This document shows positions 21,686 to 64,000 of a stretch of 64,000 nucleotides of DNA, in pieces (the first letter of the stretch is position 1; every line of letters begins with the position of its first letter). The DNA is from Nemertoderma westbladi (lineage: Eukaryota; Animalia; Xenacoelomorpha), in NCBI GenBank assembly GCA_032718475.1, contig JAUCBJ010000256.1, positions 1,785 through 65,784 of the forward strand, read 5' to 3'. The notes under the pieces were generated by a model. It ran no database searches and had not been told where the DNA came from. It was given only the letters and a program-made list of their open reading frames with translations. A program made the position numbers and the translations under genes.

Positions 21686-22846
21686 ATGGGGGCCTATACA
21701 CTGGCACCGACGGATAAACGGAAATCATCCCGAGTTATCAAGAAACCAAATGAATCCCCAACAATCCGCAACAGTTCCCAGAGGCCTACTACTACCGGGA
21801 CCGGATGCATGCCGTTGGCTTCACCTAAAACTCACACTCCGACCTCGGAGTTTGAGCAGTCTGGAGCAACGGCCAACGATACAGGGAACGATTCGAGTAG
21901 TATTTGCCCTCACTGTAATAAGAAAGTTGGGTCAACAAACCCATTACGCTGTGATATTTGCGTTAAACTGATTCATTGTTCTTGTTTGAATATAACCGAG
22001 ATTGAAGCTACTCTGATATCAAAGTGCAAAAACTGCAAAATAATGTGCAACCTGTGCGACTCCGACGGGAAATCGTTCAGTCGTCACTCAACAAGTTTGG
22101 TGGAAGAGGTTAAACAGGTGGTCGTTTCACAGATGACAGGGTTTAGCGACAGTCTGGATACATTGCGAAAGGAGGTCCGCGAGCTAAAAACTGGTGGACG
22201 GGCCGACAATCCCGAGTTCGAGGAGGTCTCGGACTTGGACATGGACGAGGAGGATGCAGTCGAGTGGATTATCCCGAAGGATATATGGCGCTCGAAAACA
22301 AAAAGGAAGAAAGCCCCAGCACCATTCGCACAATTAGTGCAGGATTCGGTACGAGAGGCTTTAGAAATACAGACGAAACATGATCAAGTTAAGAGAGAAG
22401 TTATAGTCTCCCGATTGGAGGAATCTAAATCCCCGAAGGATGAAAGGAAGACTATCTCCGATATCTGCACCGTGGCAGGTGTAAGCCCAAATACAGTTAC
22501 AGACATAGTTTGCCTTGGTCGACCGGTGGATAAAAGGAACAGGTTGTTAAAAGTGACCTTCACTACAGAACAAGATGCCAGAGACTTTCGGGTAGGTTTC
22601 GATGATTCGAAAAGCTCGGAGACTCCATCCATATACGATAAACTTACGGTACGCCCGAGCCGGACAGAGGAAACCGAACGCCATATCCGTTCTCAACGGA
22701 AGATAGTGAGTCGAATGAACAAAGAGATAAAAGATAACGATGAGGACAATACTACTTCCAGCTACAGCATCCGCCCCGATGGTGCGATATGGAAGTTCGT
22801 AAAGCAGGACGATGGTTACTGGAGACGTGATCGCTCTTGGAAATAG
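21686..22846 (+). CDS. CR1 ORF1 protein with PHD finger and coiled coil
   Basis: CPHC...CDIC...HCSC...CNLC PHD pattern followed by an ORF1 C-terminal motif (IVCLGR...RLLKVTF). The true start may lie in overlapping ORF 21453 (possible frameshift). Confidence 0.85.
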   Translation: MGAYTLAPTDKRKSSRVIKKPNESPTIRNSSQRPTTTGTGCMPLASPKTHTPTSEFEQSGATANDTGNDSSSICPHCNKKVGSTNPLRCDICVKLIHCSCLNITEIEATLISKCKNCKIMCNLCDSDGKSFSRHSTSLVEEVKQVVVSQMTGFSDSLDTLRKEVRELKTGGRADNPEFEEVSDLDMDEEDAVEWIIPKDIWRSKTKRKKAPAPFAQLVQDSVREALEIQTKHDQVKREVIVSRLEESKSPKDERKTISDICTVAGVSPNTVTDIVCLGRPVDKRNRLLKVTFTTEQDARDFRVGFDDSKSSETPSIYDKLTVRPSRTEETERHIRSQRKIVSRMNKEIKDNDEDNTTSSYSIRPDGAIWKFVKQDDGYWRRDRSWK

Positions 22847-25799: not shown

Positions 25800-26023
25800 T
25801 AAACGTTTCTGGGTTCTACGGTATGTACAGTTCATTTTATTCGTATTTCTTTTTAATTTTTTTTTTTAAGCTGATGTAAATTTTAATGTTTAGTGATTTT
25901 AAATTTTGTTTTTTATTAACCCCCGTAAGCGCTGATACGCCTGGGTGGTTTTTCTCCCTCCACTAATTATGTTTTATCTTACTTCACGTGCAACAAATAG
26001 TTATAATATGATGTAATAAAGGA

Positions 26024-29000: not shown

Positions 29001-29056
29001 AGAATCGGGAAGCCTGGAAGGATCTCATTTCCACTGTCCGAGTTCGCTCGACCTGA
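26024..29056 (+). pseudogene. RTE/RTEX APE-RT polyprotein with frameshifts and in-frame stops
   Basis: MNARTL, CIQEHR, YSPT, GDLNA, SDH; NYRGICLL, GVLQGDTLAP, FADD; C-terminal RRLRFSGHCWR and HGKRSRGRP. Split over ORFs 26024, 27160, 27661, 28073 and 28583. Confidence 0.92.
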
Positions 29057-38661: not shown

Positions 38662-39539
38662 TATGACATAGATTTAGTATCAATATTCCATAATTTAATA
38701 CGAGTGATAGATATTATTGATCGTTTTAAATAATGTTTCAAAACTGCATTATTTTGCTTAATATTATAAGTTGATTTGAAACATGTTGTCTGTTGAATTA
38801 TTTTGCTTGATATCATTGCTCGATTTAAATAACAGTTGAATTATTTCAACCGATAATTATAGGTCGTATTAAATGTAGTTATTATTTCAGCTGATCTCTT
38901 GATGATTTACTTCTCTGCTTCTATACATGCTTCACTTACCATACCGGTACCACTGTGCGCTGTACAGCTGTACCAGTAAGTACTGCAGTACCCTAAGATA
39001 AGGCTACACCAACTATACAGCCAGGAATAACGGTTAGATAGTTAATCGGTAGTTCCCTGAAGCTGACAGCTGCATCTGGACAGAAAGCCACATACTGACA
39101 TACAGCTAGTCCTGCTGTCCTGTACTCAGATACTGCAGTACTGGTACAGTGCATAGTGGTACCGGTACGGCGGTAAGTGAAGCATGTGTAGAATCAGGGA
39201 AGTGAATCCTCACGAGATCAGCTGAAATAATAACTACATTTAATACGACCTATAATTATTATAAGTCGAAATAATTCACTGTCTCATTTAAAACTACCTA
39301 TAATTATCGGTTGAAATAATTCAACTGTTATTTAAATCGAGCAATAATATCAAGCAAAATAATTCAACAGACAACATGTTTTAAATCAACCTATAATATT
39401 AAGCAAAATAATTCAGTTTTGAAACATTATCGAACAATAATATCAAGCGAAATAATTCAGCATGGCAAAAATCATTTAAAACGATCAATAAAATCACTCG
39501 TATTAAATTATTGAATATTGATACTAAATGTATGCCATA
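38662..39539. mobile_element. Foldback-type element with long (about 330 bp) terminal inverted repeats
   Basis: Left arm TATGACATAGATTTAGTATCAATATT...TACCGGTACCAC is the reverse complement of the right arm GTGGTACCGGTA...AATATTGATACTAAATGTATGCCATA. The arms contain internal AATAATTCA sub-repeats. Confidence 0.85.
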
Positions 39540-41757: not shown

Positions 41758-42004
41758 TCAACATTCCTCGCTGAAGTGTCTTTCTTTAACCAACGCTCTA
41801 CCAACAGACCCATGTCTGGCTCTATACCGGACGTATAAAGTAGACTTAGGAACTTTAAACTTCCTAGCCGCCGGCATTATTCCCATGTGACCATCCACAA
41901 CAGCTCTTAGTGCCGCCTCTAGCGTCTCCTCTGAATATTGGCGAAAGGGACGTTTTGTACCTTCGATACGCCAGGGAACTCTGTCATGATTAGAACGCTC
42001 GCCT
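41758..42004 (-). CDS. Alternative terminal exon V3 encoding an HTH_psq domain (81 aa + stop)
   Basis: Acceptor TGTTTTATTTGTCTAG|A, phase 2. Encodes RQYSEETLEAALRAVVDGHMGIMPAARKFKVPKSTLYVRYR. AATAAA on the minus strand at 41540-41545. Confidence 0.8.
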
Positions 42005-42944
42005 CTAGACAAATAAAACAGGGAGTCTGTATGACTGTAGAGAGTAGGATATACCAGGAGTCAGACGTAGGACTGAAACCACACATAAATTAGTCTAAAA
42101 GAATTACTAATTACATACTATTTATATTCCCAAAAGTAGAACTGTAACCTGTTATATTGACGGAAAAAGATGTCACTGAACCCTGTTGCTTTCTCTTAAT
42201 TTATAATTACTTAAAATTGAGACGAGATATTAAATAGCTGACACTTGGATTTGGGTGCCCCCCCCCCCCCCCCCCCCCCAAGGTTTCTATACATTCATAT
42301 TACCTCATTGGTTTGTTTAAAACAAATATATAATTAATCATGGAATTTAATTAAATAAACTATTATTACTGTATATATAATAGGCCTAAGATACACCTAA
42401 AAATACTTAAAACAGCAATATAAAACGGACTTTGACATGAATTCCACAATGGTAAAATAAACTATTACTGGCCTGTAAAAAGTTGTAGTTTATAGGACCT
42501 GCCAAATAAATAGGTAAATTATATTGGTGGTCAAATTTATTGGAAAAACCAAATTAACGGTAACTGTGGGTAAGCATATCTTAAATGTGATGTTATTATA
42601 ATTACAAAATTAATATTAAAAGAAAGGGGCGTTCACAAACTGTCACGCAAGCCCAGTCGGAAAGTAATAAGTAAATTACAGGAGAAAATATTTATTAAAT
42701 AATAATATTATTAATAAAGATTTCATAAATTTACGGCAAATACAGCGGAATCATATTTTATTTTATTTAGCAAAATATTAAAAATCAGTAATTAATGTAG
42801 AGTTAATAAGGATAGGTAGGAATATAACCCCCCCCCCACCCCCCCCCCCCCTCCACCCCAAATTGTTCTAAAAATATTAATGAGATTGCATGAAATTTGA
42901 AACAACGATAGTTTCACCTACCTCCTCCTCCTCATCCTCCGTTA

Positions 42945-43535
42945 ATGAATGAGCCAGAATTTATATTTTTGCTTTCAATTTTTAGCTATAAGCGTTTTAA
43001 AAGGTGTCCCCAGTGATATTTCACTAGTTACAGTGAAGTTATTATTCAACCTTATATAGTTATATAGTTATTTGTTGGTACCAATGGAAAGCTGGCCATG
43101 CAAGGATTCCAAAAATGTTAAGACATTTTAATTTGGTTGGGAAATAGCAAAGATATGGGGGCATGCTTCCGCTGCAGGCCTTTTATTCTATTTAATAAAT
43201 ACACAATATTCTGGTGTTTGTCGCATACTGTAAGTAGCTGGGCAACAAAGCAATAGCTCTATAATCAATCATAGTTTTACCTACCTATTAATACATAAAC
43301 AAAATGTTCTAGAATATTGTTCTAGCCTTGCGCAGTATCAAACCAGGCAACTTTCTAACACTTATCTCAGCTACTTTTAAACGACCATCCAGCTTTTTAA
43401 CATAACAGCACCAACAAATCACTTTAAGGTTGAAGAATAACTGCGGTGTAACTGGTGCAATATCGTAGGAGACACCTTTTTTTAAACGCATGTAGCTAAA
43501 AATTGAAAGCCAAAAAATTCTGACTCACCCACCCA
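42945..43535. mobile_element. MITE with about 65-bp imperfect TIRs
   Basis: GCTTTCAATTTTTAGCTATAAGCGTTTTAAAAGGTGTC (42971) is the near reverse complement of GACACCTTTTTTTAAACGCATGTAGCTAAAAATTGAAAGC (43471). The match extends outward through GAGCCAGAAT/ATTCTGACTC; exact ends are approximate. Confidence 0.7.
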
Positions 43536-43883
43536 GGAGTTGCATAAAGCTATCTCTATTTAAATATCATACAATTCCAGTTAGATTTGTAAACATTTCT
43601 TTTGGGTGGGGGGCAGGTCCCAGCACTATATTCCAACACACGGTGTAGTAGGATACAACACAACTACAGGAAAGGATGATTGATGTATTATAATAATAAC
43701 AACTCAATAATCAGTATAAGTTACTTTACTCAATAATTTGATACCAATGTTGAACTTTATGTAAAGTCAACTAGTTTTATAAATAGGAAAAAATTAAAAA
43801 AAGCACATCACATATCAATAAACGAAACACTGAAAACAATTAAAAGTTACGACTGTATGTGAGCAAAACGGCGTAAAAGTTAA

Positions 43884-44205
43884 TTAACTATCTGGATATA
43901 TATCCACACTTTTAGACTCCGGTATTAAATCGTACGTAGTCTCGAGTGATTGGTTGACAGTGACGTCATTAATTTGGTTTTCAGCCGCGGTTCTAATCTC
44001 ACCAGAGACAGCGACGCTTTTAATGTTATCATATAGCGTCGACTTGGGTATATTATACAAAGCCGCGACCTTCCTGACTGGTATACGTTTCCATAGAACA
44101 GCAGTAATGGCCTCCTCCAATGCCTCCTTGGAGTACTGGCGTTGAGAGAAAGTCTTGGTGGAGCGAGTAGACCACCTCCAGTCCGGAAGACTAACATTGG
44201 GTTTC
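43884..44205 (-). CDS. Alternative terminal exon V2 encoding an HTH_psq domain (106 aa + stop)
   Basis: Acceptor ATTATATTTATGTAG|G, phase 2. Encodes RQYSKEALEEAITAVLWKRIPVRKVAALYNIPKSTLYDNIK. Confidence 0.8.
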
Positions 44206-44404
44206 CTACATAAATATAATATCAACCGCTATTGCAATATATATCTATATACATCAATAAATCCATTTTATTCGAAAATATAAATATTATGTAACTCCAT
44301 AGGTAGAAGAGGATGTAGATACTGTAGTAGATAACTTTATATGACGGGTGACTTTATAAGGCGGGTGAGAAATGTTTTTACGACGGGTGAGAATCCAATA
44401 GAGT

Positions 44405-47400
44405 ACAGGTACACCCGGTAAGGTAACCCACACAGGTACACCCGGTAAGGTAACCCACAAAGGTACACACGGTAAGGTAACCCACACAGGTACACCCGAT
44501 AAGGTAACCCACACAGGTACACCCGGTAAGGTAACCCACACAGGTACACCCGGTAAGGTAACCCACACAGGTACACCCGGTAAGGTAACCCACACAGGTA
44601 CACCCGATAAGGTAACTCACACAGATACACCCGGTAAAGGTAACCCACACAGGTACACCCGGTAAAGGTAACACACACAGGTACACCCGGTAAATTAACC
44701 CACATAGGTACACCCGATAAGGTAACCCACACAGGTACACCCGGTAAGGTAACCCACACAGGTACACCCGATAAGGTAACCCACACAGATACACCCGGTA
44801 AAGGTAACCCACACAGGTACACCCGCTAAGGTAACCCACACAGGTACACCCGGTAAAGGCAACCCACACAGTACACCCGGTAAAGTAACCCACACAGGTA
44901 CACCCGGTAAGGTAACCCACACAGGTAAACCCGGTAAGGTAACCCACACATGTACACCCGGTAAGGTAACCCACCCAGGTACACCCGGTAAGGTAACCCA
45001 CACAGGTACACCCGGTAAAGGTAACCCACACAGGTACACCCGTTAAAGTAACCCACACAGGTACATCCGGTAAGGTAACCCACACAGGTACACCCGGTAA
45101 GGTAACCCACACAGGTACACCCGATAAGGTAACCCACACAGGTACACCCGGTAAGGTAACCCACACAGGTACACCCGGTAAGGTAACCCACACAGGTACA
45201 CCCGATAAGGTAACCCACACAGATACACCCGGTAAAGGTAACCCACACAGGTACACCCGCTAAGGTAACCCACACAGGTACACCCGGTAAAGGCAACCCA
45301 CACAGGTACACCCGGTAAAGTAACCCACACAGGTACACCCGGTAAAGGTAACCCACACAGGTACACCCGGTAAGGTAACCCACACAGGTACACCCGGTAA
45401 GGTAACCCACACAGGTACACCCGGTAAGGTAACCCACACAGGTACACCCGGTAAGGTAACCCACACAGGTACACCCGGTAAGGTAACCCACACAGGTACA
45501 CCCGATAAGGTAACTCACACAGATACACCCGGTAAAGGTAACCCACACAGGTACACCCGGTAAGGTAACCCACACAGGTACACCCGATAAGGTAACCCAC
45601 ACAGGTACACCCGGTAAGGTAACCCACACAGGTACACCCGGTAAGGTAACCCACACAGGTACACCCGATAAGGTAACCCACACAGATACACCCGGTAAAG
45701 GTAACCCACACAGGTACACCCGGTAAGGTAAGCCACACAGGTACACCCGGTAAGGTAACCCACACAGGTACACCCGATAAGGTAACCCACACAGGTACAC
45801 CCGGTAAGGTAACCCACACAGGTACACCCGGTAAGGTAACCCACACAGGTACACCCGGTAAGGTAACCCACACAGGTACACCCGATAAGGTAACTCACAC
45901 AGATACACCCGGTAAGGTAACCCACACAGGTACACCCGGTAAGGTAACCCACACAGGTACACCCGGTAAGGTAACCCACACAGGTACACCCGATAAGGTA
46001 ACTCACACAGATACACCCGGTAAAGGTAACCCACACAGGTACACCCGGTAAAGGTAACACACACAGGTACACCCGGTAAATTAACCCACATAGGTACACC
46101 CGATAAGGTAACCCACACAGGTACACCCGGTAAGGTAACCCACACAGGTACACCCGATAAGGTAACCCACACAGATACACCCGGTAAAGGTAACCCACAC
46201 AGGTACACCCGCTAAGGTAACCCACACAGGTACACCCGGTAAAGGCAACCCACACAGTACACCCGGTAAAGTAACCCACACAGGTACACCCGGTAAGGTA
46301 ACCCACACAGGTAAACCCGGTAAGGTAACCCACACATGTACACCCGGTAAGGTAACCCACCCAGGTACACCCGGTAAGGTAACCCACACAGGTACACCCG
46401 GTAAAGGTAACCCACACAGGTACACCCGTTAAAGTAACCCACACAGGTACATCCGGTAAGGTAACCCACACAGGTACACCCGGTAAGGTAACCCACACAG
46501 GTACACCCGATAAGGTAACCCACACAGGTACACCCGGTAAGGTAACCCACACAGGTACACCCGGTAAGGTAACCCACACAGGTACACCCGATAAGGTAAC
46601 CCACACAGATACACCCGGTAAAGGTAACCCACACAGGTACACCCGCTAAGGTAACCCACACAGGTACACCCGGTAAAGGCAACCCACACAGGTACACCCG
46701 GTAAAGTAACCCACACAGGTACACCCGGTAAAGGTAACCCACACAGGTACACCCGGTAAGGTAACCCACACAGGTACACCCGGTAAGGTAACCCACACAG
46801 GTACACCCGGTAAGGTAACCCACACAGGTACACCCGGTAAGGTAACCCACACAGGTACACCCGGTAAGGTAACCCACACAGGTACACCCGATAAGGTAAC
46901 TCACACAGATACACCCGGTAAAGGTAACCCACACAGGTACACCCGGTAAGGTAACCCACACAGGTACACCCGATAAGGTAACCCACACAGGTACACCCGG
47001 TAAGGTAACCCACACAGGTACACCCGGTAAGGTAACCCACACAGGTACACCCGATAAGGTAACCCACACAGATACACCCGGTAAAGGTAACCCACACAGG
47101 TACACCCGGTAAGGTAAGCCACAAAGGTACACACGGTAAGGTAACCCACACAGGTACACCCGATAAGGTAACCCACACAGGTACACCCGGTAAGGTAACC
47201 CACACAGGTACACCCGGTAAGGTAACCCACACAGGTACACCCGGTAAGGTAACCCACACAGGTACACCCGATAAGGTAACTCACACAGATACACCCGGTA
47301 AAGGTAACCCACACAGGTACACCCGGTAAAGGTAACACACACAGGTACACCCGGTAAATTAACCCACATAGGTACACCCGGTAAGGTAACCCACACAGGT

Positions 47401-47544
47401 ACACCCGGTAAGGTGACCCACACAGGTACACCCGATAAGGTAACCCACACAGATACACCCGGTAAAGGTAACCCACACAGGTACACCCGCTAAGGTAACC
47501 CACACAGGTACACCCGGTAAAGGCAACCCACACAGGTACACCCG
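44405..47544. repeat. 27-bp minisatellite array 1
   Basis: Unit GGTAAGGTAACCCACACAGGTACACCC. A higher-order repeat of 1386 bp is visible (identical ORFs at 44695/46081 and 45260/46646). Confidence 0.97.
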
Positions 47545-48798
47545 TGTAAAAGCCTTTGCTGAATTGCCCCGTTATTTTTATTATCTTTTACATTAAAATA
47601 CTCTGTAGTTGATTTAATAAGTGTAAGAGACCGTATTATTGCTGTATCGGTGTTTTTAGAGGATCTAAGATCTATTTCCTCCGTATGTGTACTGTGAAAG
47701 GCATATTTTATGATTCTATGGCAATTCGTGACGCAAAGGGGTGATAGCTACTCTTGAACAGTAGTTACTATGACTACGGTTAACAGCTGACATTCATACG
47801 TGTTGATTTCCTTTGTTCTACGGCGTCTCTCAGTTCAGTCAGCCAATGAGAGCGTTTTTGTGGCTCCTTGTACAGAAAATTTCCGAGAAATGACGCAATG
47901 CCTATGTGCAGTGTTTACATTCAGTCTTGAGCCAAAGAAAGAACGGCTTAGAAGTATTTTGTGCTGTACTGCTTTTTAGTCGTACACTAGTAGGTTTAAT
48001 TATAAAGGGCATATATCCTTTAACAAACTGACTACTGCAATTTAACATACCTGATGACTGCTGACTGATCATACATGCTGACTGCTGAAACATTGCAAAC
48101 TCATAACAATCAGTGTTCAGTTGTTGTTTTATACTGCTATTTGCGGTCAGTTCTTCATAATATGGTTGATGAATTATTATATTTGGAATAACGATAAACA
48201 ACCCCGAAACCCAATGTTCTTGATATACCGAAGGTAAGAGAGAAGGGTTACAGATAAACGATTGTGACTTATGTTAAAGTGGTTTGAAGTGAATCTAATG
48301 TTATTTGATAGACCCTACATGAGTCAGCCTGTGTTCCTTTTATACGTGACTAAAATCAGTGAAGATTGGCAGATTAGTGTGCAGTATTGTGCAGCATTGT
48401 GTATGAGTGAGTCTGTTAAAGAAGCAATTCCTAAAGAATGCGCCATATATGTGGATTATAATTAAGCCATATCGTTGTGAATAGTTTAAGTCATAACTCT
48501 GTTTATGTAGATAAAGCGCCACGTCCTAAAGGAACTGTTAATATTACCGAAGGTGAATAATATTGTCAGAGATTATATAATACTGTCAGTCGAATAATAC
48601 ATTAGGCTTACATAGCAATAAAAATTAAACCGTCGAACCCAATCTCCCGGGAATATCCAGCGGGTGAATGGTCGCGCACGGATTGGTTTCGACTAGTGTA
48701 GTGAATCAAATACTTGTCATAGACTAAAAGCAGATTTATTATCTAGAAGACATTCTAATTTGGCGGGTTAAACTGCCAAAGGTCTGAAAGCGCGAACA

Positions 48799-51208
48799 AC
48801 CCGGTAAAGTAACCCACACAGGTACACCCGGTAAGGTAACCCACACAGGTAAACCCGGTAAGGTAACCCACACATGTACACCCGGTAAGGTAACCCACAC
48901 AGGTACACCCGGTAAGGTAACCCACACAGGTACACCCGGTAAAGGTAACCCACACAGGTACAGCCGTTAAAGTAACCCACACAGGTACATCCGGTAAGGT
49001 AACCCACACAGGTACACCCGGTAAGGTAACCCACACAGGTACACCCGATAAGGTAACCCACACAGGTACTGGTACACCCGGTAAGGTAACCCACACAGGT
49101 ACACCCGGTAAGGTAACCCACACAGGTACACCCGGTAAAGGTAACCCACACAGGTACACCCGGTAAGGTAACCCACACAGGTACACCCGGTAAGGTAACC
49201 CACACAGGTACACCCGGTAAAGGTAACCCACACAGGTACACCCGGTAAGGTAACCCACACAGGTACACCCGGTAAGGTAACCCACACAGGTACACCCGGT
49301 AAGGTAACCCACACAGGTACACCCGATAAGGTAACCCACACAGGTACACCCGGTAAAGGTAACCCACACAGGTACACCCGGTAAGGTAACCCACACAGGT
49401 ACACCCGGTAAGGTAACCCACACGGGTACACCCGGTAAAGGTAACCCACACAGGTACACCCGGTAAGGTAACCCACACAGGTACACCCGGTAAGGTAACC
49501 CACACAGGTACACCCGGTAAAGGTAACCCACACAGGTACACCCGGTAAGGTAACCCACACAGGTACACCCGGTAAGGTAACCCACACAGGTACACCCGGT
49601 AAGGTAACCCACACAGGTACACGCGGTACGGTAACCCACACAGGTACACCCGGTAAGGTAACCCACACAGGTACACCCGATAAGGTAACCCACACAGGTA
49701 CACCCGGTAAGGTAACCCACACAGGTACACCCGGTAAGGTAACCCACACAGGTACACCCGGTAAAGGTAACCCACACAGGTACACCCGGTAAGGTAACCC
49801 ACACAGGTACACCCGGTAAGGTAACCCACACAGGTACACCCGGTAAAGGTAACCCACACAGGTACACCCGATAAGGTAACCCACACAGGTACACCCGGTA
49901 AGGTAACCCACACAGGTACACCCGGTAAGGTAACCCACACAGGTACACCCGATAAGGTAACCCACACAGGTACATCCGGTAAAGGTAACCCACACAGGTA
50001 CACCCGGTAAGGTAACCCACACAGGTACACCCGGTAAGGTAACCCACACAGGTACACCCGGTAAGGTAACCCACACAGGTACACCCGGTAAGGTAACCCA
50101 CACAGGTACACCCGGTAAGGTAACCCACACAGGTACACCCGGTAAAGGTAACCCACACAGGTACACCCGGTAAGGTAACCCACACAGGTACACCCGGTAA
50201 GGTAACCCACACAGGTACACCCGGTAAGGTAACCCACACAGGTACACCCGGTAAGGTAACCCACACAGGTACACCCGGTAACGTAACCCACACTGGTACA
50301 CCCGGTAAGGTAACCCACACAGGTACACCCGGTAAGGTAACCCACACAGGTACACCCGGTAAAGGTAGCCCACAGGTACACCCGGTAAAGGTAACCCACA
50401 CAGGTACACCCGATAAGGTAACCCACACAGGTACACCCGATAAGGTAACCCACACAGGTACACCCGGTAAAGTAACCCACACAGGTACACCCGCTAAAGG
50501 TAACCCACACAGGTACACCCGGTAAGGTAATCCACACAGGTACACCCGATAAGGTAACCCACACAGGTACACCCGGTAAAGGTAACCCACACAGGTACAT
50601 CCGGTAAGGTAACCCACACAGATACACCCGGTAAGGTAACCCACACAGGTACACCCGGTAACCCACACAGGTACACCCGATAAGGTAACCCACACAGGTA
50701 CACCCGGTAAGGTAACCCACACAGGTACACCCGGTAAGGTAACCCACACAGGTACACCCGGTAAGGTAACCCACACAGGTACACCCGGTAAGGTAACCCA
50801 CACAGGTACACCCGGTAAAGTAACCCACACAGGTACACCTGGTAAGGTAACCCACACAGATACACCCGGTAAGGTAACCCACACAGGTACACCCGGTAAC
50901 CCACACAGGTACACCCGGTAAGGTAACCCACACAGGTACACCCGGTAAGGTAACCCACACAGGTACACCCGATAAGGTAACCCACACAGGTACACCTGGT
51001 AAGGTAACCCACACAGGTACACCCGGTAACCCACACAGGTACACCCGGTAACCCACACAGGTACACCCGGTAACCCACACAGGTACACCCGGTAACCCAC
51101 ACAGGTACACCCGGTAAGGTAACCCACACAGGTACACCGGGTAAAGTAACCCACACAGGTACACCCGGTAAGGTAACCCACACAGATACACCCGGTAAAG
51201 GTAACCCA
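48799..51208. repeat. 27-bp minisatellite array 2 (same family and orientation as array 1)
   Basis: Same unit, with 22-bp deletion variants near 50650-51110. Confidence 0.97.
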
Positions 51209-51519
51209 ACACGAGACCGACTGGGGACCTCCGGACAAATGTTTAGCTCCTCCTGCTAAACAAGTCTAATCAAAATAATCACAAACTATTTTTATCAGAT
51301 AAAATAAAAACCTCATAGCAAATCGATTATTTAACTAATGTGAAAACATTCAAAAATAGTTTAAAATTGAATATAATAGCCGATTAAAGTAAAGGAACGT
51401 CAGTATTCGGTAAATTGCAGAAGTCAGTAATCCTAATCAAAACAGTAAACTATAGTAAATAAAGCAAATAGTTTAATAAGCGATCATTATGTGGTTTCGT
51501 ACAGTTTTTATTACCAATT

Positions 51520-51740
51520 ACCCCGGACGCGGCTTGCGGCTTATCAAAAAAAATTGCGCCGCCACAACTCCCTATCACCCATGACATTTGCTAGATCATC
51601 CGCATCTTCAAGGCCAGTGTCATTTAAAAGGCGTCTCATGAAAGTCATCGAATGTCCACCATGCTTATTCACTCCGTGAGGCTGAATAAGCATACGATCG
51701 TGTATGGTTAAAGCAATGTCCTGCTCCCGCAATGCGGCGG
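51520..51740 (-). mobile_element. Degenerate 3'-end fragment of an RTE/RTEX-type LINE
   Basis: IQPHGVNKHGGHSMTFMRRLLNDTGLEDADDLANVMGDRELWR matches the RTEX C-terminal pattern seen at 28890-29030 (WQPTHGKRSRGRP...DTELGRNEIATTMENREAWK). Confidence 0.6.
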
Positions 51741-52694
51741 CTAGTAATTTAATGTTTAATATTTAATTTCGTAAGAAATTTAGCCTTTTAAAGAGAATAC
51801 AGTGCGAAGCGTTTAAAAATTTAAAAGATAAAATTTTTTTAATATTTTTTTGATGTAATATCAAAGAAGTATCCAAAAATACAGTAATTTAAAATTTATT
51901 CAGTATTATATTATATATATATATATTATATATTATATTCAGTATATAGAGTATTATACCTTATCATGTGATTGTTTTGGTCTGTGAAATTAGAATTTCA
52001 GTTATTTCTCTTCACGGTAAATTCTTTATCATAGAGTGTTACACATATCGTTTCAATTGTATACAGTACATACACTTAACTAATTATTTACGCGATACCG
52101 TTTTTCACCATTTTTGTAGTGGGAAGAGCTTTTACACCGCCGTGTATATAAAGTATAAGGGTAATAGGAATACAACAAAATAACAATATTATTAATAATA
52201 TTATGATTTTATAGGGCACCTTCTTCAAGTTACTTTATCAAAAAGCAATACAGAATTAAAAATAAAACGACGAAAGTGAAACATTAAGAAGGCCGCGCCC
52301 AGGTCACCTGGGTAATCATAATGGAGTGCGGAAGATGGTTTTTTTCAGGTGAATCAGCTTACAGGCCTCTTTATCAATGAATTTTTAGTGTAAACACGTA
52401 AAACCAACGAACCCACAATAACAGATCAGTACCGGTAAGGCCTGACATATGATTTTTATAGTATATTAACATTTTTGTTATTTTACGTGTTTAACCTAAT
52501 ACCTATCATCCATTGATAAAGGCATGTAAACTGAATTATTTCGTAATAACCTTCCTTAACTTTGTTTCACCTGAAAAAATCTCATCCCCCCCACCCCGTT
52601 ATAAAAGTTAAACAATTAAATATCTGTTATATTAAACAGAACCAGTTTCATTACTACAAGTTCAGGGGGGTCTCTCTCTCCAGGTATTTAACTG

Positions 52695-52926
52695 TCAGTT
52701 AATTGGTTCGCTATTAATGACGTCAGTAGTAAGTTTAAAATAAGCACTGTAAGCATGCCGTCTAAGTGTTGTCCTCGGAATGTTGTAGGCTATAGCAGCT
52801 CGTCTCTCTGGCATACGTTTCATAAGAACAACACTAACAGCTTCCTCTAAGGCCTCTTTGGAATATAAAGAATTCCGACGTCTCGTCTTTATAAACCCAA
52901 CATTATCAACAACATCAGCAGCATTC
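52695..52926 (-). CDS. Alternative terminal exon V1 encoding an HTH_psq domain (76 aa + stop)
   Basis: Not in the ORF track. Acceptor GTTGTATTTGTTAG|G, phase 2. Manual translation: NAADVVDNVGFIKTRRRNSLYSKEALEEAVSVVLMKRMPERRAAIAYNIPRTTLRRHAYSAYFKLTTDVINSEPIN*. Confidence 0.78.
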
Positions 52927-55499
52927 CTAACAAATACAACGTTTACTGGAGGTTTCAGACAGTTGTTGTTTATTGTTAAACTACTGTCCCATTAGTATAA
53001 GTTACACTGTGAGGTATAACGAACTAACAACACAAGTAGTAGGACAACCACATGCTACTCTAGTTGATTCAAAAATAATTAGAAAATTTATAAAAAAAAC
53101 GGCATTTGGAATGCTGTGTAAACATACTGTAGAAGGAGCTCGTGCAATTTGTTATACAGTATATATTTAATTAACAAATTATATTTTATTATTAAACTTT
53201 TAAAGATCGCCTTGAATTAATACAGCTAATTAATCCCATTTGTAGTTTAACATATTTGTACCTGTTTGTAGTTTAGCAACACGTCTGTAGCCAGACAAGT
53301 CAAAACCCACCAATTAATATTTAGTATAGAGACCATAACTGTAGTACAATTAGTAGAGGCAGTAAAGGATTATATATAAATATATTTTTACTTTAAATGT
53401 ACAGTAATAAAAAATAAATTATTCCTACAATAAAAATAATAGTCTTATTCCCTTTGCCCTATTAATTAACAAAAATATTTTCATATAACATTCATTGAGT
53501 TAAATTATCATAATTTAGACCTAAACAAACTTAAGTAGTTCAAAGGATTACCGGTACTCCAATACACAACTGTTACCACGCAACCATGGAATCGGGACAC
53601 CTACCTCGGTACCTATGGAGTGAGTGGTCATCGATTTTGTACTGTATAGGGTGCACCGCGGTGCAGTGAAACTGAACAGAATCGTATCAGAACGGGAAGA
53701 AGTTCTCGACAAAAACAGCGGGTAGGTGCGTTGAGTCGGCGTATAAGCCGGTAACACAGCTACCGGAATTCTCCCTACCTACAGGTAACTCTCAGACTAT
53801 GTTGGGTTTCTGGTTGTTTACATTCCACAGCACTCGTGTACCTGGACTTCACAAAGTTCCTGACCTTTCACGGCTAAATGGCGTATTGACTAAATACTAT
53901 CCGTTAAAGTGGCTGAATAAGAGATATATAGTAAATCATATTATATTTCACACTTTATATCCCATCGCGATATAAATATCACACTTTATATAACGCAGGG
54001 ATATAAAGAACAATCTTATACCAGGCTTTTCCGTTATAATTCTAGAATTAAAGCAAATTTTAGGGATAAATTAGTTACACATAAAAAATATTCTGAAGCA
54101 TTGGCACTGAATTATATCAATTGGCACTGAAATATAATCATTGGCACTAATTTTTGGTACTAAAAAATGTTAATTGGTACAGAAATTGTATTATACGACA
54201 TGTTGCTATAAATAATTACTATCGAACCACAAAAATCGTCAAGTTCCATCAGTATTATTATCAAAATAGAATCAAACCTACTAATGAAATAATTAAACAA
54301 TGAAGCTCAACATATGGGATATATTCTAGAGTATATTTATGTTAGATGGGGTCGAACTCGTTCGTTCACTACAGTTTCTATGCAGTCTATATGCCTGGGA
54401 GGCCAACACCGTTGGTACTGAAATCGAAACATTTATTTTTGTGTCACTAAAACATGACCGTTATCTTTTGAACGGCATAAAAATCATTGGCTGTTAAATA
54501 AAATCCGTAATTTTTAACTATCGTTTCCATATTACTTATACTAAAACGGCACTTAAATGTTAAAAAGGAATCACCACTTTTGCAATTCCTAAATTAAATT
54601 TACTCAAGAAATTTACAATTTTGATAAATTTTTCGTAATACCTCTGTTTATTGTCCGTGTTAGTTGAAAACTGGCACCAACTTTATTAACGCCTCCTGGA
54701 TGTTCACTTTTTTAGCTGTTTAGTACGTTGCGGGGTAAAAAACACACATAAATTGGTAACCGGGTGCACTAATAATATGTAACTGAGTACTCAAATTAGT
54801 GATAATAGAAAAAATATTAGGGAATTTATATAGTCAGGGGGTCACATTGTACAAAAACAGTGAAAGTAGAGCCCCCCCCCCCCCCCCCTCCCCTCCCACC
54901 ATCCAAACATTATTGGAAAATATTGTTTCAGAGTGTTTTTCGTAAATAACAAGGACAATTAATAAAATTATCGGTTACAATATTTATCTGGAATAAACTG
55001 GCTGTCCGTCAAACATGCGTGGGGTAAATGCACCTCACACAGTCCATGAACCGTTAAAATACTATTCCATATGTTCTTAAAGAATTTATTAAATTTTTAT
55101 AATTATTAATTATTAAATTTTTAAAATTATTAATTATTAAATTTTTATAATTATTAATTATTAAATTAATATAATTATATATTGTATCAATTAAAATATA
55201 TTAAATACGTTAATACAGACAAATATTTATAACATAATAAATAATCAATTACACCATATCCTTGAATATAGTGTCGTGATTCAGTCACACTTCCGATATT
55301 CCTCAACCTTATAGCGAATACTTAGTACAGTAGCGCTTTACAGTGTCCTGATCTTTGCGAAGACAAATACCGTACGAAAATAACAAAACAAACATATTGC
55401 ATCGTAAGAGTTGCTACCACGCCTGTCCAGTCCATGACAGTTATTATTATTATTAAGTTGGGCTTTTAGCTAAGAAATGAATGATTTCAGCTTTGTCAC

Positions 55500-56150
55500 T
55501 ACACCTTTTCAACATGTATTTCAGAAAACATCACATTGATTTCATAAAATACATTTGAATTATATATTCTTTCATTTGGATTTCAATAATTGCATTTTGA
55601 TTTCAGAATATTGTAATTGGGGTTCATAAATTCCATTTAAATTTCAGAAAGTTATAATTGAATTTAACTTTTGCTATTTTCATTTCAGAATGTTTCAATT
55701 TGATTTTAGTAAACTCATTTCGATTTCAAAATGTACCATTTGAATTTCAAGATTAAGATTTGAATTTCAGAAGGAACCAATTGGTTTTCAAAAATTCCAA
55801 TTGCAATCCAGAAATTCCTAAATGTATTCAGGAAGATATATTTATAATATCAGAAAATTTAATTTGCACTTTAGAAAATTATAATTTAATTTCAGAAAAT
55901 ATTATATTTGAGTACTTGAGTTTCAGAAACAGTCTAATTGAGTTTCCGAATTTCCATTTCTGTTTCAGAATTTCCAACTCGATTTCAAAATTTTCATTTC
56001 TATTTCAAAATTTCCAACTCGATTTCAAAATTTCCATTTCTACTGTATTTCCAAATTTACACTTCTATTTCAGAATTTCCAATTTGATTTCAGAATTTCC
56101 AATTTGATTTCAGAATTTCCAATTCGATTTCCAAATGTTCACTTCTATTT
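55500..56150. repeat. Degenerate AT-rich tandem sub-repeats (about 20-bp ATTTCAGAATTTCCAATTTG), probably a transposon subterminal region
   Basis: Recurrent ATTTCAGAA/TTTCCAA motifs, most regular at 55960-56135. Confidence 0.55.
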
Positions 56151-56814
56151 TATATGATGGGGTGGGGTCGGAGGGTCGGGTCGTCGGATTTTGCTATTTT
56201 ATAAGCGCTGACCGGCCAAACCGCAAAGTTTTAGATAGGTGGTGTGGTGTGATTTATAGTATTGGGACGGACAACTGGCGGACGAACTGACAGACAAACA
56301 GCCTAGATGCCGTCAATAAAAAAAAATAGACATAGAAAGTTAAATCACCGACCAAGAAAAACCCCTTACAGAAAAACTAAGTTATGTGGTGGTAATCCTT
56401 ATTGACGGATATTATTTGAAAACTCAACAGTTGTAAATATTGGTTCTGTCTACTGAGTGCTGATTTATTGACGGCCCTAAACTGACATTCTTACATATTG
56501 ACAGACAATTTGAGCGGGAAGGTTTAAAAGTCCTTATTTGTTTTACCCGTTTTAATCCGATTTCAATTTCGGACTTCGCGCAGCACGTGACATAAACTTA
56601 TGTTAAGTGTCTACGCGAAATAATTTCAAGCAAATCATACATAGACGTCCCATAATCAATTATGAAAGCCAAACCCGTCTACGGCACGGCCTGTCTACTA
56701 TGAATGAATATATTCATTTATTGGTTTATCGCCAAATTGAAATGTCTACTATGAATGAATATATACTGGTATTAGGCCTAGGCCTACAAGACCGCAATAC
56801 GACCGAGTAATTCG

Positions 56815-58420
56815 AGTAATAGAATTCTATTGTATAGCTTTGCAGCAATCGAGATCAATGAGATTCCTCGAAAAGAACCATAGAGTGTTAGGTTGCCCTT
56901 CTTGGGAACTGGCACCAACTTATTTGTTTTCATTTCTTGTGGGACTCTTGTTGTACGGTACATGTCTACTATGATGGGATAGATGAGCTTTAAACACTCA
57001 GGTATTTTAAAGACCTCAGGGGGAACACCAGCTACTCCACTGGCACGATTGGTCTTAATGCTCTTTGCAGCAGCCTTCACTTCTGCAAAGGAGATATCAC
57101 CAATGGGAATATCTGGGAGTACAGACTCAGACACTTTTACTTCTATAAAGTTATCAGGCAATACCCTGTCATTATTGAGGAGCTTTTCAAAGTGGGCCTT
57201 CCAACCATTGAGGCGATCGGCTGGTGATTCAGCCTTAACCTTGGTGGTTGGTTGGCTTTTACGACCAGCAAGCAAGTTGATCGATCTCCATGCCTGGGAT
57301 GATTGCCTGCTGTCGTCAGCATCATTGATGGTATCAACCTGTTGGTTTATTAGCTCCTGTAAATTAACAGAGTACTGCCTGTTCAGGGACCTAGATGCAG
57401 CCTTAACTGCATTCTTGGCCGCTGTAGTCTGTTTGAGTCGGGACTCTTTCTGCGCCTTGTAGAGGTCATTTCGGCATTTCTGAATTTTGTTGTCAGTCCA
57501 GGGGGCCCGTTTCCTGTTTCGAGAGTATACAGGAACTGTTTCTGCAGCTGCTAACTTAACTGCCTCTGTGAAGGCAGTATAGCCCTCACAGTGATCTGCC
57601 GCCTCAGAGGCAAGAGCCTCATACCTGTTGCTCAGCTGTAGTGTGAAGCTGGATCTCACACTTGGCTGTTGCAACAGAGAGGACCAGTCATGCCGCGGCA
57701 AGGCAGATTTCGTTGTTCTGCTAGCACGCAGACTAAGTCTTACCTTGGCCACAATAAGGCGGTGATCACTGGAGAAGGGTCGTAGTGTAAATGCATTACA
57801 TTCTTGTATAGAGCTCCTGTATTTCCTACGAAACAGGATATGGTCTATCTGGGACTTGTGACCACTGGGTCCACTATGAGTCCATAGCTTTCCAGTTCGC
57901 TTCTTGAACTGGGTTCCAGCCGAAAACAATCCATTTCCAGAGATAAAATCCTGAAGATGGACGGAATTTCGGTTAACACTGTTGCTATAGACTCAGGGCG
58001 ATGTAGGTGATTGATGCAGACTTGCATTAAAGTTTCCCAGGAATGTTAAGAATGCATGCTGATCCACTCCATCAGTAGCTGCTTGTAGATTCTGGTAGAA
58101 TTTTTCCACCTCCTCTACAGGGGCAACACTAGTTGGAGAGTAGCACACAATCAGAACCACCTTAGGAAACTTCTTAGCCAGTCTTACAGAACATGAGAAG
58201 TGGCAACGGATGATCGGTTAGAGATTTGGTCTATTTTGTCCAATGCTGCATGTGCAGTTGGATTCATCAATAGCCCAATCCACCATTGCCACTATCATCT
58301 GCTGAAGCGAGGGCGAGTCGCCAACCGCCCCCCATGCCCAACCTGCCCCCTTAATCAGAACCTCATCAGTATGTCCAGTCTGCATTCGGTGCTCTTGAAC
58401 ACCCACTGCGCTAAGAGAAA
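56815..58420 (-). mobile_element. Degenerate RTE/RTEX-type LINE: 5' leader, APE and start of RT, 3' part missing
   Basis: ORF 56784-57929: GKLWTH...SQIDHIL...SSDHRLIVAKVRLSLR...VPKKGNL...FRGISLISIAAKLYNRILL. Degenerate APE (CYSPT) lies further upstream at about 57930-58300. Confidence 0.85.
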
Positions 58421-58423
58421 GGT

Positions 58424-61400
58424 TTGTAAATACAACTTATATAACTTACCTTTGGTTGTAAATACAACTTATATAACTTACCTTTGGTTGTTAATATAAC
58501 TTATATAACTTACCTTTGGTTGTAAATATAACTTATATAACTTACCTTTGGTTGTAAATACAACTTATATTACTTACCTTTGGTTGTAAATACAACTTAT
58601 ATAACTTACCTTTGGCTGTAAATACAACTTATATAACTTACCTTTGGTTGTAAATACAACTTATATAACTTACCTTTGGTTGTAAATACAACTTATATAA
58701 CTTACCTTTGGTTGTAAATACAACTTATATAACTTACCTTTGGTTATAAATATAACTTATATAACTTACCTTTGGTTGTAAATACAACTTATATAACTTA
58801 CCTTTGGTTGTAAATACAACTTATATAACTTACCTTTGGATGTAAATACAACTTATATAACTTACCTTTGGTTGTAAATATAACTTATATTACTTACCTT
58901 TGGCTGTAAATACAACTTATATAACTTACCTTTGGTTGTAAATATAACTTATATTACTTACCTTTGGTTGTAAATACAACTTATATAACTTACCTTTGGT
59001 TGTAAATACAACTTATATAACTTACCTTTGGTTGTTAATATAACTTATATAACTTACCTTTGGTTGTAAATATAACTTATATAACTTACCTTTGGTTGTA
59101 AATACAACTTATATTACTTACCTTTGGTTGTAAATACAACTTATATAAATTACCTTTGGTTGTAAATACAACTTATATAACTTACCTTTGGTTGTAAATA
59201 CAACTTATATAACTTACCTTTGGTTGTAAATATAACTTATATAACTTACCTTTGGTTGTAAATACAACTTATATAACTTACCTTTGGTTGTAAATACAAC
59301 TTATATAACTTACCTTTGGTTGTAAATATAACTTATATTACTTACCTTTGGCTGTAAATACAACTTATATAACTTACCTTTGGTTGTAAATATAACTTAT
59401 ATAACTTACCTTTGGTTGTAAATACAACTTATATAACTTACCTTTGGTTGTAAATACAACTTATATAACTTACCTTTGGTTGTAAATATAACTTATATAA
59501 CTTACCTTTGGTTGTAAATACAACTTATATAACTTACCTTTGGTTGTAAATACAACTTATATAACTTACCTTTGGTTGTAAATATAACTTATATAACTTA
59601 CCTTTGGTTGTAAATATAACTTATATAACTTACCTTTGGTTGTAAATACAACTTATATAACTTACCTTTGGTTGTAAATATAACTTATATAACTTACCTT
59701 TGGTTGTAAATACAACTTATATAACTTACCTTTGGTTGTAAATACAACTTATATAACTTACCTTTGGTTGTAAATATAACTTATATTACTTACCTTTGGC
59801 TGTAAATACAACTTATATAACTTACCTTTGGTTGTAAATATAACTTATATAACTTACCTTTGGTTGTAAATACAACTTATATAACTTACCTTTGGTTGTA
59901 AATACAACTTATATAACTTACCTTTGGTTGTAAATATAACTTATATAACTTACCTTTGGTTGTAAATACAACTTATATAACTTACCTTTGGTTGTAAATA
60001 CAACTTATATAACTTACCTTTGGTTGTAAATATAACTTATATAACTTACCTTTGGTTGTAAATACAACTTATATAACTTACCTTTGGTTGTAAATATAAC
60101 TTATATAACTTACCTTTGGTTGTAAATACAACTTATATAACTTACCTTTGGTTGTAAATACAACTTATATAACTTACCTTTGGTTGTAAATATAACTTAT
60201 ATAACTTACCTTTGGTTGTAAATATAACTTATATAACTTACCTTTGGTTGTAAATACAACTTATATAACTTACCTTTGGTTGTAAATACAACTTATATAA
60301 CTTACCTTTGGTTGTAAATACAACTTATATAACTTACCTTTGGTTGTAAATACAACTTATATAACTTACCTTTGGTTGTAAATATAACTTATATAACTTA
60401 CCTTTGGTTGTAAATACAACTTATATAACTTACCTTTGGTTGTAAATACAACTTATATAACTTACCTTTGGTTGTAAATACAACTTATATAACTTACCTT
60501 TGGTTGTAAATATAACTTATATTACTTACCTTTGGTTGTAAATACAACTTATATAACTTACCTTTGGTTGTAAATATAACTTATATAACTTACCTTTGGT
60601 TGTAAATACAACTTATATAACTTACCTTTGGTTGTAAATACAACTTATATAACTTACCTTTGGTTGTAAATACAACTTATATAACTTACCTTTGGTTGTA
60701 AATATAACTTATATAACTTACCTTTGGTTGTAAATATAACTTATATAACTTACCTTTGGTTGTAAATACAACTTATATAACTTACCTTTGGCTGTAAATA
60801 CAACTTATATAACTTACCTTTGGTTGTAAATACAACTTATATAACTCACCTTTGGTTGTAAATATAACTTATATAACTTACCTTTGGTTGTAAATACAAC
60901 TTATATAACTTACCTTTGGTTGTAAATACAACTTATATAACTTACCTTTGCTAGTAAATACAACTTATATAACTTACCTTTGGTTGTAAATATAACTTAT
61001 ATAACTTACCTTTGGTTGTAAATATAACTTATATAACTTACCTTTGGTTGTAAATATAACTTATATAACTTACCTTTGGCTGTAAATACAACTTATATAA
61101 CTTACCTTTGGTTGTAAATACAACTTATATAACTCACCTTTGGTTGTAAATATAACTTATATAACTTACCTTTGGTTGTAAATATAACTTATATAACTTA
61201 CCTTTGGTTGTAAATATAACTTATATAACTTACCTTTGGTTGTAAATACAACTTATATAACTTACCTTTGGTTGTAAATATAACTTACCTTTGGTTGTAA
61301 ATACAACTTATATAACTTACCTTTGGTTGTAAATACAACTTATATAACTTACCTTTGGTTGTAAATACAACTTATATAACTTACCTTTGGTTGTAAATAT

Positions 61401-62404
61401 AACTTATATAACTTACCTTTGGTTGTAAATATAACTTATATAACTTACCTTTGGTTGTAAATACAACTTATATAACTTACCTTTGGTTGTAAATATAACT
61501 TATATAACTTACCTTTGGTAGTAAATACAACTTATATAACTTACCTTTGGTTGTAAATATAACTTATATAACTTACCTTTGGTTGTAAATATAACTTATA
61601 TAACTTACCTTTGGTTGTAAATACAACTTATATAACTTACCTTTGGTTGTAAATACAACTTATATAACTTACCTTTGGTTGTAAATATAACTTATATAAC
61701 TTACCTTTGGTAGTAAATACAACTTATATAACTTACCTTTGGTTGTAAATACAACTTATATAACTTACCTTTGGTTGTAAATACAACTTATATAACTTAC
61801 CTTTGGTTGTAAATATAACTTATATAACTTACCTTTGGTTGTAAATACAACTTATATAACTTACCTTTGGTTGTAAATACAACTTATATTACTTACCTTT
61901 GGTTGTAAATACAACTTATATAACTTACCTTTGGTTGTAAATATAACTTATATAACTTACCTTTGGTTGTAAATATAACTTATATAACTTACCTTTGGTT
62001 GTAAATACAACTTATATAACTTACCTTTGGTTGTAAATACAACTTATATAACTTACCTTTGGTTGTAAATATAACTTACCTTTGGTTGTAAATACAACTT
62101 ATATAACTTACCTTTGGTTGTAAATACAACTTATATAACTTACCTTTGGTTGTAAATACAACTTATATAACTTACCTTTGGTTGTAAATATAACTTACCT
62201 TTGGTTGTAAATACAACTTATATAACTTACCTTTGGTTGTAAATACAACTTATATAACTTACCTTTGGTTGTAAATATAACTTACCTTTGGTTGTAAATA
62301 CAACTTATATAACTTACCTTTGGTTGTAAATATAACTTACCTTTGGTTGTAAATACAACTTATATAACTTACCTTTGGTTGTAAATATAACTTATATAAC
62401 TTAC
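58424..62404. repeat. 32-bp AT-rich tandem array, about 124 copies; each unit contains AAG|GTAAGT on the minus strand
   Basis: Unit TTACCTTTGGTTGTAAATACAACTTATATAAC (starts at 58446 and 58478), with 22-bp deletion variants near the 62404 end. Confidence 0.98.
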
Positions 62405-62498
62405 CCTTGGGACGCGGTTGGCTCTATAGACTGGTCTGTAGAACTTATATTTAGCATCGAACTCGAGTTAAGTAGCGAAGGAACCACGGTTGGAGAAT
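62405..62498 (-). CDS. Constant coding exon 3 (94 nt) of the putative variable-HTH_psq transcription factor gene
   Basis: Acceptor TATTTGTTACAG|AT (phase 1); encodes (D)SPTVVPSLLNSSSMLNISSTDQSIEPTASQ(G); donor CAAGG|GTAAGT (phase 2). Confidence 0.78.
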
Positions 62499-62685
62499 CT
62501 GTAACAAATACACCGAGAGCGGTGGATAATAATAGGCTGAGAAGCGAAATATACAACGATACCGGTTGAATTTCTACTTAAGTTAGAAAATAATATAAAG
62601 AAAAAGTAAAAAGAGAACAAATAGTTTCCCTAAAATCCAAATAATTTAATACGGTATACCGAAAATTTCCGTCAATTACAATTAC

Positions 62686-63098
62686 CTTGAGTAGACGAGG
62701 TGGATTGATCCAGGAGCGGGTTGGCTTGGTAATTATGCGACAGATCGAACATAGAGGTACCGGTAGAAGCGACGTCTTCTAAATCCCGCAACATAAACTG
62801 CACAGAATCACCGGCTGGCGGTTCAGTAATAGAGGCCTCGGTAAAACGATCAGCTGATACCGGACAGGCCGACTGTTCCAACTCCAGTTCCATTTCGGAA
62901 TCCTCCTTTTCGAGTTTAATTTCGGGAAGCGCGTCGGTTGGAGTGACGGATTGGGTGGTTAAATTGTCGGAGTTTGGGAGTTGGAAGGACGTGGTTGACG
63001 GTTGAGTCGATGGCATTGTGGCTCCGGGAGGAATCGGGGGCCTCCGACCTCGACATGCTAATCGACTCAATGATTGGGCCATTCCTCTACGGTGGAAT
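62686..63098 (-). CDS. Constant coding exon 2 (413 nt)
   Basis: Acceptor ATTCTCCTATAG|A (phase 2), donor TCAAG|GTAATT (phase 1). Open frame equals ORF 62672-63082; S/P/T-rich with IKLE SUMO consensus. Confidence 0.78.
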
Positions 63099-63252
63099 CT
63101 ATAGGAGAATAAATGGATTGATTTTATGTGAAATTATGTGAGAAATATAGGACACTGACTACTGGGGTACGGTCTGTACGGTACATGATACTACTACCAA
63201 AGGCAGTTACAGGTAGGCGGTAGCTGATTATGAATGGTTTAGTTAGGTCTAC

Positions 63253-63740
63253 CTCGCTCTGCCTCTGTTGTTCGATCCAGTAACAGGAATATAATTCCCT
63301 TGTCTCGCATTCGATAAATCATTCCTTTGGGATTGGTTTGCAGAGGACAGTCTAGTATTGGCTAGACGTGACGTCATAGGGGAATCAGCGATTGGTTCAC
63401 TCGCTACCGGTATACTATCTGATGGCGGGGATATAAACGAGAGATTAGGCAGCCCACTGCCGTCATACAGCCGTTCCCCGCTGTAATCCGTTCCATCGCG
63501 GGAACCAACAGCTGTTGAATCCGGGTTCCCAATGAGTTTCTCCAGCCACGAGGTGATCTCCACCGCGGTGCAGTTGGTCGTCACATAGTCCTCGAGAAAA
63601 GTCCCGTCGTTACGTAAATACTCGCCGAGAAACGAACGCATAAACGTGCTATTGGCCAGACAGATGTTAATGAAAGAAGATTTGTCGATGACGAACGCTG
63701 AAGATATATCGATCGGAATAACGGGACCTTGTTCCGACAT
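63253..63740 (-). CDS. Constant coding exon 1 (488 nt from first ATG)
   Basis: AAAATGT start at 63740 (MSEQGPVIPIDISS...); open frame equals ORF 63249-63746; donor GCGAG|GTAGAC (phase 2), compatible with exon 2. Confidence 0.75.
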
Positions 63741-64000
63741 TTTCAAGAAAATCTTGAACCGACCGCAACAGGCAGACAGGTCTGCAGGTAGGCTTTTGCT
63801 GTTATCTAGTGCTGCAGGGATAGAGCCAGAGCCTATAGCTGTAGAGATACTTTACCCCTATCTGTTATCCGCCTGTCCGCAGATCGGTTCAGTTCAGTTG
63901 ATTTTTATTCCTAGCCTATTTCAGTATTTAACCTAGTAACCTGTAAACAGTAGGCTAGGCCTACAGCAGTACGCAACAAGCAGACTACTGGACTAGGCAC

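Follow-up and report, generated by a model that had tools for sequence, protein, structure and literature searches.

We examined a 64,000-nucleotide (nt) stretch of contig JAUCBJ010000256.1 from Nemertoderma westbladi (below, the window). Its minus strand carries what is probably a single transcription-factor gene: three constant 5' exons, followed by three candidate terminal exons (A, B, and C) that each encode a pipsqueak-type (psq) helix-turn-helix (HTH) domain (Table 1). The acceptors of these terminal exons lie 9.5, 18.2, and 20.4 kb downstream of the donor of constant exon 3, in a window that is rich in fragments of long interspersed nuclear elements (LINEs), long minisatellites, and mobile-element debris. 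An earlier note on this DNA had proposed that the three psq exons are alternative ends of one gene, and that this gene, unlike lola and mod(mdg4) of Drosophila, has no BTB domain.

Table 1. Features of the putative gene and its surroundings (positions in the window; aa, amino acids; UTR, untranslated region)
Feature	Position	Strand	Description
Constant exon 1	63253..63740	-	488 nt; ATG at 63740; phase-2 donor GAG/GTAGAC, the weakest donor
Constant exon 2	62686..63098	-	413 nt; linker rich in S/T/P/E
Constant exon 3	62405..62498	-	94 nt; strong phase-2 donor AGG/GTAAGT
Terminal exon A, coding part	52695..52926	-	HTH_psq; helix PRTTLRR; own stop; predicted protein of 408 aa
Terminal exon B, coding part	43884..44205	-	HTH_psq; helix PKSTLYD; own stop; predicted protein of 438 aa
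Terminal exon C, coding part	41758..42004	-	HTH_psq; helix PKSTLYV; own stop; predicted protein of 413 aa
Open stretch upstream of ATG	63741..63851	-	37 codons; acceptor-like AGs at 63811 and 63752; 5' UTR, or the place where a coding exon from past the window end is joined on
32-nt minisatellite	58424..62410	-	126 copies; begins exactly at the exon 3 donor

The coordinates and phases that the earlier note gave for the constant exons are correct. The three exons (488 + 413 + 94 = 995 nt) join into 331 codons plus 2 nt (GG) without an internal stop codon, with GT donors and AG acceptors in place at 63253/63098, 62686/62498, and 62405. Reading through the exon 3 donor yields a glycine and then a stop codon. 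In all three terminal exons, the acceptor supplies the nucleotide that completes a glycine codon (G, G, and A for A, B, and C, respectively), as had been claimed. Each frame then runs to its own stop codon, which falls 22 (A), 49 (B), or 25 (C) aa past the P..TL of the HTH. The G+C content of the terminal exons is 0.40 to 0.49, versus 0.26 to 0.36 in their flanks; for constant exon 2, it is 0.52, versus 0.39 and 0.28. The hexamers AATAAA or ATTAAA occur 795, 688, and 213 nt past the stop codons of A, B, and C, which is uninformative because the DNA is so AT-rich.

All three terminal exons score above the curated gathering cutoff for HTH_psq (PF05225): 31.9 bits for A, 30.8 for B, and 44.1 for C, versus a cutoff of 20.4. 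Their recognition helices are those that the earlier note had read. The frames that we scanned against Pfam were free of stop codons and 45 aa or longer. They numbered 176 (84 on the minus strand and 92 on the plus strand) and did not include any that were centered in one of four tandem arrays or in one of six long blocks of retroelements or of a G-protein-coupled receptor (GPCR). Only the frames of A, B, and C reached any Pfam cutoff. The earlier note had also suggested looking for further psq exons, including on the opposite strand. A profile of the three segments found no fourth one in the six frames of the whole window (the next best match had E = 1.4). The closest solved structure to exon C is the HTH of LCoR (2cob, E = 6e-5), and the top three Atlas matches for C are HTH_psq clusters at 0.86 to 0.89, which we treat as a lead only.

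To rank the acceptors, we used an ad hoc score, made for this analysis, over the 1,476 AGs of the minus strand. The acceptors of C, B, and exon 3 rank 21, 44, and 68, and that of A is moderate (168). Within 200 nt, the acceptors of B and C are the best AGs available (of 9 and 12, respectively). The acceptor of A is third of 11, and it is the best one inside the open frame: both of the better AGs lie above the in-frame stop codon. As a control for chance, we considered intronic points with 66 nt of open frame, with the acceptor threshold set afterwards at A's score. An equally good acceptor in the right phase lies 30 to 100 nt upstream of 406 of 3,313 such points (12%), which corresponds to about 0.002 for three segments. 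The motif TATTTRT..YAG is also common to four acceptors, those of exon 3 and of A, B, and C, and these four sites are the only four minus-strand matches to its strict form.

The three psq segments differ mostly at silent positions. Across 35 core codons, the proportion of synonymous differences (pS) and of nonsynonymous differences (pN) were 0.77 and 0.25 for A and B (Fisher p = 1.5e-6), 0.73 and 0.36 for B and C (p = 7e-4), and 0.70 and 0.42 for A and C (p = 0.015). A and B share 22 of the 35 core residues, of which 15 are encoded by different codons. All three frames are intact although the silent sites are near saturation, and intact frames in such old copies imply selection on the protein. 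Judging from these codons, A, B, and C arose long ago, by duplication or capture, and are constrained at the level of the protein. A and B are sisters, and C would be either the product of an earlier duplication or of a separate capture.

We compared these segments with the 2 pogo-type loci (L003 and L004) among 12 metagenome loci that were found with the psq alignment. L003 (4426 to 5814 on the plus strand of a metagenome contig) is an intact-looking pogo-type transposase with psq, Tc5, and DDE_1 domains. L003 and L004 each have a methionine ahead of the end of P..TL, by 47 and 49 aa, respectively, and L003 runs on for another 391 aa into Tc5 and DDE_1. In contrast, none of the three segments from N. 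westbladi has a methionine between the upstream in-frame stop codon and the HTH, so each of them needs an upstream exon and none could be translated alone. We therefore rejected the possibility that the locus is a pogo transposase: a start methionine is present in 0 of 3 segments versus 2 of 2 controls, and neither Tc5 nor DDE_1 follows psq.

The origin of the psq domains is another matter. C is identical to L003 at 18 of 44 positions and to L004 at 20 of 39, versus 13 of 34 for A and 17 of 37 for B. This pattern, in which C is about equally near to transposase psq domains and to the sister exons A and B, is consistent with capture from a transposase. The earlier note had raised the concern that the segments might be remnants of transposons, and the parent transposon was not found. 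The Tc5/DDE part of L003 had no tblastn match near the exons (L003 matches the three only by psq), and no match to HTH_Tnp_Tc5 or DDE_1 was found in the 176 frames. Among the 25 longest of 31 and of 64 inverted pairs, only AT-rich 24-mers bracket the exons; old terminal repeats would have decayed. HTH-Psq factors are described as pogo derived, repeatedly domesticated, and independently expanded in several animal lineages (PMC10027918). In a bioRxiv preprint, transposase captures are reported to arise mainly via alternative splicing, and 8 of the 9 cases used an acceptor just 5' of the transposase's frame (10.1101/2020.05.07.082677). We think it likely that the DNA-binding domain of a pogo-family transposase was captured by splicing, as these comparisons suggest, and was then duplicated.

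The constant part seems to have two regions. Its first 75 residues have a hydrophobic fraction of 0.40 (versus 0.23 in the remainder), with residues 20 to 70 or so both hydrophobic and predicted to be helical. These 75 residues were modeled as four helices at low confidence, and the models, which have predicted local distance difference test scores of 37 and 48.5, are of too low a quality to judge the fold. Beyond residue 75 or so, the constant part resembles a disordered linker. PIDIS (residues 9 to 13, in exon 1) is what we take to be a near match to the CtBP motif PxDLS, and IKLE (residues 223 to 226, in exon 2) is presumably a SUMO-consensus-like site; both are short, and either could have arisen by chance.

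The first long intron downstream of the constant exons opens with the 32-nt minisatellite. AG/GTAAGT is present on the gene's strand in 122 of its units; outside the arrays, GTAAGT occurs just 11 times on this strand. If a later donor in the array were used, then the in-frame stop codon behind the first donor would be included, and the product would be a 332-aa protein without an HTH or a target for decay. The plainest reading of the array is that the donor seeded a repeat expansion, in a genome rich in minisatellites. That it influences the choice of last exon is speculation. Farther along this intron, at 56787 to 58420 (minus strand), lies what appears by eye to be a decayed LINE-like fragment, with no Pfam match; a strong in-phase acceptor within it (58410) could give a cryptic end of 64 aa. 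Exons A and B are separated in part by another array, of a 27-mer, in which GGTAAG occurs 108 times on the strand that does not encode the gene. An element of about 580 nt (42950 to 43527), located between B and C, resembles a miniature inverted-repeat transposable element (MITE), with inverted ends of about 100 nt.

Given the common phase of the three acceptors, the lack of methionines, the selection on the protein, and the absence of transposase catalytic parts and of separate 5' exons from what we found, the reading of A, B, and C as alternative terminal exons is well supported by the sequence. This part of the earlier note's proposal stands, with the splicing itself deduced from those features. 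Counting versions with and without an upstream BTB domain, we consider a gene with alternative last exons to be quite probable. For the more specific form of this model, in which the three shared exons are spliced to one of three psq last exons and no BTB domain is present, our confidence is somewhat better than even. Most likely, the pre-mRNA of such a gene would be cut and given its poly(A) tail downstream of A, B, or C, with competition between polyadenylation and acceptor use, by analogy with lola. The exon 3 donor would be joined to the matching acceptor (52926, 44205, or 42004) to give proteins of 408, 438, or 413 aa, with a common front and one psq HTH each. Joining exon 1 straight to a psq exon would also keep the frame, for products of 239 (A), 269 (B), or 244 (C) aa. 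The shared part, with its small predicted helical domain, its disordered linker, and its CtBP-like and SUMO-like motifs, might recruit partners, and the ends may differ in DNA specificity. More tentatively, we can imagine a fuller history: a BTB-free cassette transcription factor that evolved independently in a group of animals other than arthropods, with a new small helical N-terminal domain in place of BTB, three ends from captured DNA-binding domains of pogo transposases, and, immediately after the shared donor, a 4-kb array of 122 perfect copies of a 5' splice site that may tune the choice of end. We consider this combination possible but doubtful.

Several observations weigh against a BTB-free gene with alternative psq ends. 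Every splice junction is inferred from the sequence, and the donor of exon 1 is weak (with a score of 7, versus 11 for exon 2 and 12 for exon 3). The constant part has no known family or homologue in Pfam and homology searches, so nothing there vouches for its being coding. A relaxed form of the shared acceptor motif matches 9 sites on the minus strand and 8 on the plus strand, and the motif was derived from these very sites, so we give it little weight. Copies that belong to different active transposon families also show purifying selection. The recognition helices of B and C are identical through PKSTLY and differ only after that, while the helix of A is distinct. Finally, the window ends just 260 nt upstream of the ATG, and the true 5' end may fall beyond it. 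A BTB or ZAD dimerization domain might be encoded there and spliced in above 63740, or residues 15 to 70 or so might be a BTB domain that has decayed past detection. The 37 open codons and the acceptor-like AGs just above the ATG are compatible with this. Also, isoforms of TTK-BTB genes commonly differ in their DNA-binding domains, and BTB-HTH proteins of this type are described from arthropods (PMC11426971). However, the ATG at 63740 is the first one in view and has A at -3, and the observed/expected ratio of CpG rises from 0.43 upstream of it to 1.29 in exon 1. Exon 1 had no Pfam match to BTB at E up to 10 (in the visible sequence only, and HMMER's filters drop weak matches), and FxLRWN, a hallmark of TTK-type BTB domains (PMC11426971), is absent from all three minus-strand frames of 64000 to 63253. 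Judged by eye only, residues 24 to 70 loosely resemble the pattern of BTB helices. On balance, a BTB or ZAD domain in this gene seems unlikely, but it is the alternative that we take most seriously. The earlier note's claim of an independent, BTB-free system is only partly supported: no BTB domain was detected in the visible sequence, but the frame stays open above exon 1.

Alternatively, the psq segments might be functional without all belonging to this gene: perhaps only A is a last exon of it, and B and C end separate small genes or are joined in trans to another gene. The repeat-filled introns of 9.5 to 20 kb could conceal short and diverged 5' exons, and frames that are shorter than 45 aa or are centered in tandem arrays or retroelements lay outside the Pfam scan. 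Trans-splicing is known for mod(mdg4) and lola (PMC11426971). But there is just 1.9 kb of AT-rich DNA, part of it a small inverted-repeat element, from the stop codon of B to the acceptor of C. A tblastn search turned up no further copy of the constant exons in the window, nor did any lie between the psq segments. Separate upstream exons for each segment, which the earlier note named as a sign against its model, were not found in the window either, and all three segments are in the donor's phase. We think that separate genes are improbable. We give still less credence to the idea that the segments are inert N-terminal remnants of pogo or Tigger transposases whose phases agree by chance. The resemblance of C to the psq domains of L003 and L004 and the abundance of mobile-element debris would suit it, but the segments have no methionine, no Tc5 or DDE, and no convincing terminal repeats around them, and it is unlikely that three remnants on one strand would all have been trimmed to just this domain, kept their frames intact, and had acceptors in the same phase. 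Another scenario, which we rate lowest, has internal donors linking the segments within a single transcript, to form a protein with several psq domains, like Drosophila Pipsqueak. This bears on the earlier note's statement that the ends can only be used mutually exclusively. For A, the statement holds, as neither of the two GTs between its HTH and its stop codon is in phase 2. For B, it is not strict: a weak phase-2 GT at 43935, which scores the same as the exon 1 donor, could join B to C. The best internal donor of B (44002) is good but is in phase 1 and out of frame with C's acceptor, and chaining of B to C is unlikely.

Other features were noted in the window. Very long minisatellites are present at 44405 to 51208 (the 27-mer, in 251 copies), 5179 to 15999 (a 43-mer, 252 copies), and 29344 to 32196 (a 24-mer, 118 copies). 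A near-perfect palindrome of about 880 nt at 38662 to 39539, with arms of up to 146 nt at 96%, is probably a foldback element or MITE. LINE frames with an endonuclease and RVT_1 lie at 21620 to 29053 and at 33396 to 35434 (both on the plus strand), and one of them is preceded by a 408-aa frame that resembles open reading frame 1 of such elements. At the start of the window, an open frame of 862 codons (3 to 2588, minus strand) runs off the edge; it had no Pfam match, and from its appearance, it may be a retrotransposon gag. Lastly, an intronless frame of 959 codons (17864 to 20740, minus strand) encodes an adhesion GPCR with LRR, GPS, and 7tm_2 domains. Among the 120 of its 188 matches that were listed, identity was at most 32%, and these came from chordates, molluscs, echinoderms, hemichordates, arthropods, and a sponge.

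Along with lola and mod(mdg4), the Drosophila genes broad, tramtrack, and fruitless are TTK-type BTB genes with alternative last exons. As reviewed, lola has 20 last exons, 17 of them with zinc fingers, and the review calls how they are chosen an open question (PMC10551640). For mod(mdg4), at least 30 isoforms are described, mostly with FLYWCH domains (PMC11426971). As in lola and mod(mdg4), a constant N terminus and linker are joined, here as genomic anatomy only, to alternative last exons that each carry a DNA-binding domain plus a stop codon. Unlike in lola and mod(mdg4), neither BTB nor FxLRWN was detected in the window, the ends are HTH_psq domains, and the three ends in the window are all on one strand, so that trans-splicing is not evidently needed. 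Because no BTB domain was detected, the locus cannot be filed in the lola/mod(mdg4) family despite its layout. The earlier note did not recognize any described gene with this layout. The layout itself is established, in lola and mod(mdg4), but we found no description of a gene that lacks BTB and has psq last exons as alternatives in the literature that we searched (subscription journals were mostly outside it, and supplements were not covered). With only three ends, such a gene would be a compact model of last-exon choice. It would also point to a class of isoforms that annotation would miss or would split into tiny psq-only genes.

The Mblk-1/E93/LCOR family is similar in other ways: the HTH of LCoR is the nearest structure to exon C, and the CtBP-like motif lies near the N terminus. 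The nuclear receptor box (LxxLL) is reported from LCoR and Mlr1 and as absent from some members of the family (PMC5343783); there is none in the 331-aa constant part. LCOR is also reported to make PALI1 by alternative splicing (PMC7603765; PMC9122586; PMC5343783). Unlike in LCOR or LCORL, where an HTH end alternates with PALI, the putative gene in N. westbladi has three interchangeable psq ends, and no long PALI-like exon was seen. The match of exon C to LCoR is modest (E = 6e-5), and transposase psq domains are equally similar to C, so orthology to E93 or LCOR is not shown.

A third comparison is with KRABINER, SETMAR, and PGBD3-CSB, in which, as seems to be the case here, a transposase-type DNA-binding domain was acquired through alternative splicing. 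Unlike those host-transposase fusions, the locus in N. westbladi combines a single host part with three such domains in an array of alternatives, and it has lost the catalytic domain. Should the junctions prove real, and should no BTB domain lie upstream, then the strategy of lola and mod(mdg4) would have arisen again, on an unrelated scaffold and from transposase-type domains. Alternative DNA-binding ends would then be a recurrent solution, and not a peculiarity of the BTB genes of arthropods.

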